Assembly: GCA_030650275.1 (NCBI GenBank)
Contig: JAUSEK010000004.1
Span: 24,196 to 88,195 of the forward strand
DNA: 64,000 nt
Direction: 5' to 3'
Origin: Candidatus Omnitrophota bacterium
GTDB lineage: Bacteria > Omnitrophota > Gorgyraeia > Zapsychrales > Fredricksoniimonadaceae
Shown: piece by piece, positions 52,054 to 56,417 of the stretch
Layout: each line of letters opens with the position of its first letter
Numbering within the stretch: the stretch's first letter is position 1
Notes under the pieces: generated by a model
The model's database searches: none
Told to the model about the DNA's origin: nothing
The model's input: the letters and a program-made list of their open reading frames with translations, nothing else
Made by a program: the position numbers and the translations under genes

Positions 52054-52485
52054 CTACATCGAACCGTAAAATTTTGCAATCGCTTCATCGATCTCGGATT
52101 TGGTGGCGATAAAGGTGGCCACACGGCATTTGGTCAGGGCTTCCAGTTCGGCTTTCCTGGCGTCGCTCAAAGGATTGGACATCACAACGCTCAAAATACC
52201 GCCGATGCGGTCCAGGGGGACCACCCTCTCGCGCAAAGCAATCTCCCTGGGGATCACGGTCAGGACCTGCGGGTCGATGTTGTATTTGTTGACCGCGATG
52301 TAGGGTAACCCGCATTGGACCACCAGGGCCACCACGATGTCCCGTTCATCCAGATACCCCAATTTGACAAGGATCTCGCCGACAAAACCGTTCTCTTTTT
52401 TCTGGACCTCAAGCGCGTGGTCCAGCTGGCCCTGGGTGATGCGCTTGCGTTTCATCAGAATTTCGCCGATCAATACACGTTGCAT
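52054..52485 (-). CDS. stand-alone GspE N-terminal (T2SSE_N / MshEN-like) domain protein
   Basis: Start taken at MQRVLIGEILMKRKRITQGQLDHALEVQ (MshEN-like c-di-GMP motif); ...PYIAVNKYNIDPQVLTVIPREIA...; no ATPase domain. Confidence 0.6.
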   Translation of the reverse strand: MQRVLIGEILMKRKRITQGQLDHALEVQKKENGFVGEILVKLGYLDERDIVVALVVQCGLPYIAVNKYNIDPQVLTVIPREIALRERVVPLDRIGGILSVVMSNPLSDARKAELEALTKCRVATFIATKSEIDEAIAKFYGSM

Positions 52486-52489
52486 GACC

Positions 52490-54181
52490 TCACTCCTGGG
52501 TCGCGACACGGTAAACCTCCGCCAATGTTGTCTGTCCTTCATTCATTTTATCAACCGCATCGTCAAAAAGCAACTGCATCCCCTGATTTTCCCGCGCGTA
52601 ATGGGCGATATCATCCGAGGACTTGCCGCGGATGAGCATGTCCCGCACGGCATCATCCACCTGCAGGATCTCGGTGATCCCCAAACGGCCCAGATATCCG
52701 GTATGGCGGCACTGGTCGCATCCCTTGCCCTCATAAAAAACCGTGCCCGGCTTGACCTTGCCTTGAATGGCGGCCAGGGCCTTGGCCGGGAGCTTCACCG
52801 GCTCTTTGCAATGCGGGCATACGCGCCGGCACAGACGCTGGGCGCACACAACGACCAGGCTGGAGGCCACCAGGAACGGCTCCAGGCCCATGTCCACCAG
52901 GCGGGTCACCGCTCCGGACGCGTCATTGGTATGCAGCGTCGAGAGCACCAATTGCCCGGTCAGGGAGGCCTTGATGGCGATGTCCGCGGTCTCGGTGTCG
53001 CGGATCTCACCGACCATGACAATGTCCGGGGACTGGCGCAGGACGGCCTTAAGCCCCGTGGCAAAATCAAGCCCGATGTCATGTTTGACCTCGATCTGCG
53101 TGAGGCCTTCAATGAGGTATTCCACCGGGTCCTCGATAGTGATGATATTACGGTCCGCCGTATTGAGTTTATTGATCATCGAATACAGGGTCGTGCTTTT
53201 GCCGCTTCCCGTCGGACCGGTGACGAGGATCATCCCGAACGGTTTATAGATGGCCTCATCCATGATCTTGATGGAACGCCCGGAAAACCCCAATTTCTCC
53301 AAGCCCATGGACAAACTGGCCTTGTCCAGGACGCGCATGACCACTTTCTGGCCGAACGTCGTCGGGAGCAAAGAAACGCGAAAATCCACTTCCTGGGAGG
53401 ACACGCGCATCTTGAAACGGCCGTCCTGGGGCGTCTGGGTGGTGGTGATGTCTATGCGCGACATGATCTTGATGCGCACGGTCACCGCGCTCTGGCTGTC
53501 TTTGGGGATGACCAGCGTGTCCTGCAGAATGCCGTCGATGCGGTAACGCACGCGCATCCCTTCGGGTGTCGGCTCCATGTGGATGTCGGAGGCGCGCTGG
53601 CGGATGGCCTCCTTGATGACCAGATTGACCATGCGGATGATGGGCGCCTCTTGGCCGGTATCCGTGTTCGTCTCGGACGGACCCTCGGAGATGATCTCAA
53701 AATTGGCGGACTCAATGTTGTGGGTGACATCGGCGATGCTTTGCGCGGCCGTATCATAAAAGTTATCAATGGCCTGTTGGACCTGCGACGCTGTCGCGAC
53801 CATGACATCCACTTTTTTGCCTGTGATGTTGCTCAGGTCATCAATGGCGAACACGTTCAAAGGGTCGGCCATGGCCACGGTCAGCGTGCCGCCCAGACAG
53901 GAGATCGGCATCACCTGATTCTGGCGGGCGATCTTTGCGGGGACCATGCTTTTAAGCCGCTCGTCAAAATGGTATTTGCTTAAGTCAACCGACGGGACCT
54001 TCAATTCGCGCACCAGAAGTGCGAGCAGGTCATGTTCGGAAATGACCCCCTGTTTCAAGATCGAGCTGACAAGCCCCGTGCCGGCCTTGCGCTGGGCATA
54101 GACAATGGCGTCCAGGTCCGCCGGGTTGACCCCCGGGATCTGGCGTAATACTTTCAATATTTTATCTCTCGTGAATTCCAT
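52490..54181 (-). CDS. pilB: type IV pilus assembly ATPase PilB (GspE family; own N-terminal T2SSE_N domain + Cys4 zinc motif)
   Basis: 563 aa; Walker A GPTGSGKSTT, CPHC...CDQC tetracysteine. Confidence 0.9.
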   Translation of the reverse strand: MEFTRDKILKVLRQIPGVNPADLDAIVYAQRKAGTGLVSSILKQGVISEHDLLALLVRELKVPSVDLSKYHFDERLKSMVPAKIARQNQVMPISCLGGTLTVAMADPLNVFAIDDLSNITGKKVDVMVATASQVQQAIDNFYDTAAQSIADVTHNIESANFEIISEGPSETNTDTGQEAPIIRMVNLVIKEAIRQRASDIHMEPTPEGMRVRYRIDGILQDTLVIPKDSQSAVTVRIKIMSRIDITTTQTPQDGRFKMRVSSQEVDFRVSLLPTTFGQKVVMRVLDKASLSMGLEKLGFSGRSIKIMDEAIYKPFGMILVTGPTGSGKSTTLYSMINKLNTADRNIITIEDPVEYLIEGLTQIEVKHDIGLDFATGLKAVLRQSPDIVMVGEIRDTETADIAIKASLTGQLVLSTLHTNDASGAVTRLVDMGLEPFLVASSLVVVCAQRLCRRVCPHCKEPVKLPAKALAAIQGKVKPGTVFYEGKGCDQCRHTGYLGRLGITEILQVDDAVRDMLIRGKSSDDIAHYARENQGMQLLFDDAVDKMNEGQTTLAEVYRVATQE

Positions 54182-55901: not shown

Positions 55902-55955
55902 CGGGCGCCTCGTGAATAAATTTTAACTCATGTTCACTCGGCACGATGCCGAGCG

Positions 55956-56417
55956 TCAGCGCGAGGCATCGCCGGATTCGTAATAACGTTTGATGCCGTT
56001 TTTGATCTCCGACGCGGTACTGACAAAGGCATGCACGGCGCAGGAAGTCACGCGCTCGACGTCTTCAAGCGCCTGGACGTTGAGGGGATTCGCCATGGCC
56101 AGCGTCAAACTGCGGCCGATCCTGTCGATGGGGATCAGGCAATATTTCTTGCAAATGTCGACGGGAACGGCGGCAACGACCTCGCGGGAGATCTCGTAAT
56201 TGGACAGGGGCAGGAACGGAAAACCGTACTGGCAGGTCAGGGCCTGCACGATATCCTCCTCGGTCGCGTACTTCAGAGCGACCAAGGCCTCGCCGAACAG
56301 CAACCCCAGCTCTTTCTGCTCCTTGAGGGCCGACTCCAGCTGGACACGGCTGATGACGCCGCGCTCAAGCAGGATCTCCCCCAATGGCTTGTTGACCGTC
56401 TTGCGGAAATTCTTCAT
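55956..56417 (-). CDS. stand-alone GspE N-terminal (T2SSE_N / MshEN-like) domain protein
   Basis: 153 aa; PLGEILLERGVISRVQLESALKEQ matches the MshEN c-di-GMP-binding motif pattern; no ATPase domain. Confidence 0.6.
   Translation of the reverse strand: MKNFRKTVNKPLGEILLERGVISRVQLESALKEQKELGLLFGEALVALKYATEEDIVQALTCQYGFPFLPLSNYEISREVVAAVPVDICKKYCLIPIDRIGRSLTLAMANPLNVQALEDVERVTSCAVHAFVSTASEIKNGIKRYYESGDASR

Follow-up and report, generated by a model that had tools for sequence, protein, structure and literature searches.

The DNA under study, hereafter the window, is a stretch of 64,000 nucleotides (nt) from contig JAUSEK010000004.1 of a Candidatus Omnitrophota bacterium, and all coordinates given below are positions in this window. 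It carries a pilus gene cluster in which two adjacent genes for PilB/GspE-type assembly ATPases, B1 and B2, are bracketed by two genes, sA and sB, that each encode a small protein made of an MshEN domain alone. The order on the minus strand is rodA, sA, B1, B2, sB, pilC, a gene for a coiled-coil protein of 152 amino acids (aa), a pilin gene, pilM, pilN, pilO, a pilP-like gene and pilQ, the whole run from sA to pilQ being located on that strand. A preliminary description, made from the sequence, had proposed the succession sA, B1, B2, sB and pilC, and had attributed to both ATPases their own N-terminal domain and a Cys4 motif. The former was borne out by the open reading frames (ORFs) and by Pfam and NCBIfam profiles, the latter by profiles and by the motifs of orthologs. 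The genes of the central part of the cluster are as follows:

56440-57552, minus strand: rodA (FtsW/RodA family; FTSW_RODA_SPOVE 334 bits), upstream neighbour of sA and part of its context
55956-56417, minus strand: sA, stand-alone MshEN (GSPII) protein of 153 aa (Pfam MshEN 73.4 bits, E 1.5e-20; NF053729 59.8 bits)
54183-55901, minus strand: B1, PilB/GspE-type assembly ATPase of 572 aa (T2SSE 430 bits, MshEN 80.9 bits)
52490-54181, minus strand: B2, second PilB/GspE-type ATPase, of 563 aa (T2SSE 430 bits, MshEN 74.3 bits)
52054-52485, minus strand: sB, second stand-alone MshEN protein, of 143 aa (MshEN 69.6 bits; NF053729 51.3 bits)
50819-52033, minus strand: pilC, platform protein (T2SSF) of 404 aa (Pfam T2SSF 237 bits; PilC/GspF models about 403 bits)

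The B1 stop and the B2 start are separated by 1 nt, the B2 stop and the sB start codon by 4 nt, and sB and pilC by 20 nt, while 54 nt lie between sA and B1. The longest ORF available for sB, of 162 aa, begins at 52542 and overlaps B2. Its start is probably the ATG at 52485 instead, since a ribosome-binding site (AGGAG, within the 3' end of B2) is found 7 nt upstream, this codon lies 4 nt past the B2 stop and homologs are 140-146 aa long. The earlier assignment of an MshEN-only gene of about 144 aa is thus retained, with its length corrected to 143 aa.

Profile searches assigned all four N-terminal domains to the MshEN family, the scores listed above being well over the Pfam cut-off (PF05157, 23.1 bits); the hidden Markov model scan that had been suggested for the small ORFs was therefore positive for both. 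The NCBIfam model NF053729 ('c-di-GMP_motif', cut-off 38 bits; c-di-GMP standing for cyclic diguanosine monophosphate) was passed by sA and sB and did not match B2. In sA, a four-helix bundle containing two 24-residue motifs of the c-di-GMP type is followed by a T2SSE_N1 alpha/beta subdomain. Sequence searches against the PDB aligned sA and sB over their full length to the N-terminal domains of PilF, PilB and MshE. An AlphaFold2 model, computed for sA alone (predicted local distance difference test 88.5, predicted template modelling score 0.81), showed four helices followed by a beta-beta-alpha-beta-alpha arrangement, that is, the two-subdomain MshEN fold composed of a helix bundle and a three-stranded alpha/beta T2SSE_N1 part. 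The best Foldseek match of this model was domain GSPII-A of PilF (9G1W, template modelling (TM) score 0.84); MshE in complex with c-di-GMP (5HTL) was retrieved with TM scores of 0.67-0.72, and further matches included the Xanthomonas PilB N-domain bound to PilZ (7LKO), PilF GSPII-B and XpsE-N.

Both small proteins belong to large families. At E<=1e-5, 699 homologs were found for sA and 632 for sB. The best 120 of the 699 are all stand-alone proteins of 149-157 aa with 70-97% identity to sA, and the best 120 of the 632 are stand-alone proteins of 140-162 aa with 65-96% identity to sB. Database labels are 'hypothetical' or 'PilB', and the organism, where named, is Candidatus Omnitrophica/Omnitrophota. 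The sB protein shares 37.7% identity with sA versus 30% and 28% with the N-domains of B1 and B2, respectively, and is therefore, as judged from sequence identity, paralogous to sA rather than copied from an ATPase N-domain.

Analysis of the distribution of this arrangement was performed on one representative genome per species, scanned with peptide patterns specific for sA. At least 365 stretches encode a relative, the best 80 of which were analyzed as loci, with ORFs called and classified by phmmer. The corresponding genomes are nearly all metagenome-assembled genomes labelled Omnitrophota; some third-party annotation assemblies are labelled Planctomycetales, and one Elusimicrobia. The order rodA-sA-B1-B2-(sB)-pilC was found in every locus with enough flanking sequence, with which gene calls on long contigs concurred, and it is therefore the norm in Omnitrophota rather than an oddity of one genome. 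The distance between sA and B1 has a median of 6.5 nt over 78 loci. In about 70 loci sA is preceded by rodA, at a variable distance (median 327 nt) and often with a GGDEF-type gene in between, and pilC comes after B2 or sB in each complete locus. Among 62 complete loci, the slot between B2 and pilC is occupied by sB in about 25 and by a gene for a REC-HD-GYP protein in 20, and is empty in about 17.

Free MshEN proteins are also common in general. An exhaustive HMMER search with sA returned 19,304 cluster representatives at E<=1e-3, among which stand-alone proteins of 145-180 aa are numerous and others carry two to seven MshEN repeats. The view that stand-alone MshEN proteins flanking a duplicated pilB form an unusual arrangement was consequently abandoned, the arrangement being conserved in the phylum and free MshEN proteins being abundant in metagenomes. 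It is not described in the literature consulted on stand-alone MshEN proteins and on pili or c-di-GMP in Omnitrophota, including a survey that scored type IVa pili in this phylum (PMC10066038).

Among 50 loci with all five genes, conservation within the operon is highest for sA, with a mean pairwise identity of 62.7% compared with 57.7% for B1, 57.3% for B2, 56.4% for PilC and 53.4% for RodA; over their first 160 residues, B1 and B2 reach 46.3% and 43.7% in the same loci. A basic N-terminal tail directly preceding motif I (F4, K6, N9 and K10) is invariant in an alignment of 22 sA sequences and recalls the positive patch carried by MshE (PMC12943098).

The residues that contact c-di-GMP were then compared between stand-alone and fused domains, using the numbering of Vibrio cholerae MshE and orthologs from the related loci. 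All four N-termini of the window, those of the two small proteins included as the preliminary description had proposed to verify, align without gaps to MshE residues 6-72 (53-residue c-di-GMP-binding region) and display the 24+5+24 motif spacing of MshE. In sA orthologs, G11, G40 and Q61 are conserved in 100% and Q32 in 90% of the sequences; in sB orthologs, each of the four residues is conserved in 100%. The fused domains are of another type. In B1 orthologs, position 11 is never glycine (K/T/Q instead), position 40 is glycine in 5% (S in 86%), Q32 is present in 91% and position 61 is never glutamine (G/S/A); the B1 copy of the window has R at the G11 position and N at the Q61 position. In B2 orthologs, glycine is found in 0% at both position 11 (I/L) and position 40 (R/D/E), Q32 is present in 78% and position 61 is Q in 25% and E in 67%. 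Not one of 79 B1 and 64 B2 orthologs retains both glycines.

Published MshE mutants were used to judge these changes. The G11L substitution abolished detectable binding, whereas G40I, Q32A and Q61A weakened it by 72-fold, about 9-fold and about 12-fold, respectively (PMC5013675 supplement), and XpsE, in which G11V and G40L occur among other changes, does not bind c-di-GMP. On this basis the N-domains of B1 and B2 were regarded as probable non-binding types. The arginine at the first position of each motif (R9 and R38 in MshE) is replaced in both motifs of sA and sB: position 1 of motif II is L in 100% of the sA family, while sB has L in motif I and F/Y/L in motif II. By analogy, this absence need not disqualify either protein as a c-di-GMP binder, because PilF GSPII-B, in which the first motif positions are K and L, binds the ligand with an affinity of about 6 nM and because a broader consensus, (R/K/L)LG, has since been adopted, hydrophobic first residues being even proposed to predict high affinity (Neissner 2024, PMC11731258). 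The stand-alone domains are thus probably ligand-competent, and the fused domains of B1 and B2 probably not.

A fusion of sA to B1 was found in one metagenomic contig (L089, 62.5% GC). Its 765 aa product, P0249, consists of an sA-like domain, a low-complexity linker of about 40 aa and a B1-type ATPase. Identity is 40% across all of sA, and the ATPase part is 45% identical to B1 over its full length versus 40% to B2, with a TGH His box; the fusion gene is followed by a B2-type ATPase gene (His box TGQ) and pilC, and rodA is not a neighbour. The resulting (MshEN)2-T2SSE architecture has already been catalogued in other phyla (PMC5013675; Wang 2016 Suppl. Table 4). From this natural fusion it can be argued that sA and B1 act in physical association, sA serving as an additional N-terminal domain. 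In the window, sA and B1 lie in one reading frame, interrupted between them by two in-frame stops (TGA and TAA), and, given that the two are fused in P0249, the window encodes a split variant of this architecture. Other contexts of free MshEN genes include a locus with sA-B1-B2-pilC but without rodA (L086, 42.7% GC), a PilB-like gene preceded by two free MshEN genes in tandem (L084:110-1037) and an orphan gene beside an MscS channel gene (L087:7001-7456). Two further proteins, read by eye from their sequences, appear to carry a fused sA-like MshEN domain: P0271 (454 aa; 49% identity) together with a DnaA-like AAA+ module, and P0292 (723 aa) together with a PilZ-like segment, followed by a C-terminal region of large size.

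The two ATPases are PilB/GspE-class proteins that can be assigned to neither equivalog, since their scores lie below the cut-offs of both PilB TIGR02538 (602.9 bits for B1 and 599.7 for B2, cut-off 675.65) and GspE TIGR02533 (563.9 and 589.7 bits). An identification of either as TfpB was rejected, with NF053534 scores of 438 and 464 bits for a cut-off of 850. B1 and B2 are about 40-43% identical to each other and each family is about 57% identical internally, which indicates an old duplication. Walker A, Asp box, Walker B, the second His-box histidine and the Cys4 motif are kept in essentially all orthologs of both, Cys4 in 100%. B1 has a complete set of catalytic motifs with a canonical His box (TGH). 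In B2, the first His-box histidine is replaced by Gln in 98% of orthologs (TGQLV..LHT), the remaining catalytic motifs being intact.

The preliminary description was right in that no PilT ATPase accompanies the cluster: a phmmer search with B1 and B2 against all ORFs of the window matched only B1 and B2 themselves, without any third T2SSE/PilT-like ORF. This is no sign of a missing retraction ATPase, however. PilT occurs widely in Omnitrophota, where numerous clusters of that name show 66-94% identity, so that a gene cluster without it tells little as to whether the pili retract; in one Omnitrophota genome, a typical pilT gene (355 aa, L060:6924-7991) lies directly upstream of sA. The idea that B2 might substitute for a missing PilT is weakened by the frequency of PilT in the phylum and by the assembly-type N1 domain and zinc site of B2.

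In relatives, genes related to c-di-GMP are found next to the operon. The REC-HD-GYP protein encoded between B2 and pilC in sister lineages (about 356 aa; HD_5 111 bits; L047:12008-13078 and others among L044-L082) has intact HDxGK and GYP motifs and, by its sequence, a domain of the c-di-GMP phosphodiesterase type; it never occurs in the same locus as sB. In another locus, B2 is directly followed by a gene for a REC-GGDEF protein with a canonical GGEEF signature (142 bits, L052:11897-12790), and this by a gene for a protein of at least 1214 aa with a GGDEF domain (AGDEF) and an AAA_16/STAND-like NTPase (L052:12809-16450). More than 35 loci have, in the interval from rodA to sA, a gene for a membrane protein of the HAMP-GAF-GGDEF type (L047:6568-7995, L030:6539-7978 and others). 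Through these neighbours the operon is linked to c-di-GMP signalling within Omnitrophota, although the window lacks them and their distribution follows lineage.

Taken together, these data lead us to favour, with moderate confidence, the view that the locus encodes a split version of a multi-MshEN, PilF-like type IVa pilus motor, in which the detached sA and sB are probably c-di-GMP receptors for the ligand-blind ATPases B1 and B2. In such a system, sA would be equivalent to the outermost domain of a PilF-like ATPase with several MshEN domains, detached from the rest of the enzyme, and the MshEN domains of B1 and B2, having lost their contact residues, would presumably be kept for docking through N1. 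We infer that sA, together with sB where present, could bind c-di-GMP through the four-helix-bundle subdomain, while the T2SSE_N1 subdomain would associate with the hexamer or hexamers of B1/B2 or with the PilM/PilC platform. Engagement of the motor, and hence pilus assembly, might then depend on c-di-GMP sensed in trans, whichever direction such regulation would take. The trans-acting sensor or adaptor modules imagined in the preliminary description gain support here from contact glycines that are kept in free domains and lost in fused ones, and further support from the natural sA-B1 fusion and from the HD-GYP and GGDEF genes in neighbouring slots of relatives.

Several observations weigh against this interpretation. 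The sA and sB motifs depart from the canonical form: motif I of sA starts with P in the window and with Q (59%), H (22%) or P (8%) in the family, outside the (R/K/L)LG consensus, even if P is present at motif position 1 in the binding domain PilF GSPII-C (PMC11731258). Lysine takes the place of G47 in 42% of the sA family and of G18 in 63% of the sB family, the window copies included in both cases. The earlier claim of a c-di-GMP motif in the small proteins thus stands as regards complete MshEN domains carrying the motif, but not as regards a canonical one, given these lysines and the lack of first-position arginines. NF053729 is also passed by B1 (47.4 bits), so that profile scores alone cannot sort binders from non-binders. 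The fusion points to B1 as the partner of sA only by analogy, and B1, B2, PilM and PilC are all candidates. As for the neighbouring genes, the alternation between sB and HD-GYP follows lineage and is therefore not independent evidence, and a motif pattern search detected no c-di-GMP turnover gene in the window (no ORF with a GG[DE]EF or HD-GYP motif). The HAMP-GAF-GGDEF-type protein has a degenerate signature in all 36 copies examined (GDDEF, GDNEF or GDHEF, never GG[DE]EF) and no RxxD I-site; with both signature and I-site arginine missing, it is more likely to be a sensor or scaffold than a cyclase, and the GGDEF-type gene upstream of sA was rejected as a local cyclase.

The main rival explanation, less probable in our opinion but a serious one, regards sA and sB as structural adaptors that need no ligand and would dock or space B1 and B2 on PilM/PilN/PilC or compete with their own N1 domains. 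T2SSE_N1 is the GspL-binding part in type II secretion, and Foldseek returned partial matches to 2BH1 and 4PHT. The departures from consensus at position 1 and at G18/G47, the degenerate neighbouring GGDEF-type protein and the window without a GG[DE]EF cyclase are likewise what an adaptor would allow. Moreover, sA is highly conserved overall, so its invariant glycines and glutamine could reflect a general constraint. On the other hand, the fold tolerates the loss of G11, G40 and Q61 in B1 and B2, and these residues are strictly kept only in the stand-alone paralogs, over about 80 species; their retention in sA and sB suggests, therefore, that selection acts at the ligand site. The conserved basic tail before motif I of sA (R5, K6 and K10), as in MshE (PMC12943098), and the intact HD-GYP and GGEEF genes within the same operon in relatives also speak against an adaptor that ignores c-di-GMP.

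A more elaborate variant, which we consider speculative and rather improbable, is that sA, with sB, forms an exchangeable c-di-GMP-gated module choosing which of the two PilB paralogs engages PilC/PilM, that is, a trans-acting 'clutch' for a two-motor pilus. It would build on the contrast between the canonical His box of B1 and the conserved His-to-Gln variant of B2, and such control, if real, would be a mode not described for any type IV filament system.

It is also conceivable, but very unlikely, that sA serves another process, such as RodA-linked cell-wall growth or general c-di-GMP buffering, and lies beside the pilus ATPases incidentally. The presence of rodA before sA in most loci and the orphan free MshEN gene beside the MscS channel gene, a non-pilus context, could be read in this way. 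However, the distance from rodA to sA is variable and the interval often interrupted whereas sA and B1 are nearly contiguous, sA is fused to B1 in a contig where rodA is not a neighbour, and sA-B1-B2-pilC persists without rodA in L086. As for an artefactual origin of sA and sB, as frameshift- or nonsense-split fragments of a larger ATPase gene near 52485-52490 and 55901-55956 or as decaying pseudogenes, the shared frame of sA and B1, their distance of only 54 nt and the fused protein known elsewhere are outweighed by the two in-frame stops, by B1 and B2 that are both full length with their own N-domains, by gaps (54 and 20 nt) too small for a decayed ATPase, by the separation of the genes in 78 of 78 other loci with varied gaps and overlaps and by more than 600 homologs each, full length and stand-alone among those listed and under strong purifying selection, so that this origin is ruled out for all practical purposes.

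Among known systems, the closest to the favoured split-motor reading are Thermus thermophilus PilF and the (MshEN)2-4-T2SSE ATPases, which also have several MshEN/GSPII domains per pilus motor (Wang 2016; Neissner 2024). In PilF, too, binding and degenerate copies are mixed, GSPII-A not binding c-di-GMP while GSPII-B and GSPII-C do (PMC11731258). The best structural match of sA is GSPII-A, its motif style (hydrophobic first residue, motif II) resembles that of GSPII-B, and P0249 presents sA fused to B1 in exactly the PilF-type architecture. The window differs in that the additional domain is a separate gene product, the ATPase-proximal domain is the degenerate one and there are two ATPase paralogs, with a second free domain after the second ATPase in some lineages. 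V. cholerae MshE (5HTL) shares with sA and sB the fold, the motif spacing, the Gly/Gln contacts and the Leu clusters; its domain is fused to the ATPase, however, and its R9 and R38 are replaced in sA and sB.

The nearest functional precedent for sensing in trans is the PilB(N)-PilZ-FimX complex of Xanthomonas (7LKO; PMC8389850), where a c-di-GMP-blind PilB N-domain receives the signal via separate proteins; the trans receptor in that complex is an EAL protein acting via a PilZ adaptor, and not a free MshEN paralog. Pseudomonas aeruginosa PA3740 is a small MshEN_N-type protein without ATPase, listed as a c-di-GMP binder and related to swarming (PMC5013675). Its T2SSE_N1 part is highly divergent, in contrast to the canonical one of sA and sB, and, as far as PMC5013675 reports, it is not located in a pilB operon. 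For two extension ATPases, the nearest precedent is PilB and TfpB of Acinetobacter baylyi, two PilB-class enzymes apparently acting on one machine (review PMC11656802). B1 and B2 differ from this pair by being under the TfpB cut-off, adjacent and translationally coupled, and no stand-alone MshEN partner is described there.

The remaining genes of the pilus cluster, downstream of pilC, are the following:

50364-50822, minus strand: small protein of 152 aa with a hydrophobic N-terminus and a coiled coil (weak coiled-coil matches only)
49760-50164, minus strand: type IV pilin of 134 aa (N_methyl motif 37 bits; PilA, GspG and ComGC N-terminal matches)
48559-49704, minus strand: pilM (PilM_2 137.8 bits)
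47987-48562, minus strand: pilN, assigned from position and homologs in related loci
47394-47990, minus strand: pilO, assigned from position and homologs in related loci
47041-47397, minus strand: pilP-like gene, 118 aa (weak T2SSB/CdsD_C matches)
45644-47044, minus strand: pilQ secretin (Secretin 163.7 bits)

Positional homologs of the 152 aa coiled-coil protein in related loci are 278-341 aa long, for which reason it may be a truncated or shortened variant. A scan for promoters and terminators between 45000 and 59500 gave counts near the shuffled expectation, with terminator-like sites modestly above it, and no usable operon boundaries. Downstream of pilQ, an ORF of 1192 aa on the minus strand (40352-43930), without any Pfam match at E<=1e-3, sits in the stretch of the window with the lowest GC content and strongest skew (40-42 kb: GC 0.487, skew -0.204). 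On the other side of the cluster, the gene order upstream of rodA (57549-63302) is also kept in relatives (upstream regions of L001 and L003), so that the synteny block reaches well past the pilus genes. This upstream block comprises genes for an HTTM/DCC1-like protein, a 146-150 aa protein, Memo/AMMECR1, DoxX/MauE, a DsbA-like thioredoxin and GH77, with GH57 further upstream in relatives.

MshEN-regulated PilB motors are already known; what the present comparison suggests to be new is a probable sensor domain that is encoded separately, beside two ATPase paralogs that are probably ligand-blind. The control of PilB-type motors by their flexible N-terminal MshEN/N1 domain is an acknowledged open question (review PMC11656802). 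If the favoured interpretation is true, a separate ligand-binding protein of about 150 aa and a motor with a ligand-blind N-domain would make it possible to study binding, docking and ATPase control apart in vitro. A large family that is mis-annotated as 'hypothetical' or 'PilB' in databases would also become a set of candidate c-di-GMP receptors. Omnitrophota form a largely uncultured and possibly predatory or parasitic phylum, in which type IVa pili are thought to mediate host attachment (PMC10066038). For these pili, the free MshEN proteins beside the two ATPases would represent a concrete and probably ancient regulatory feature.

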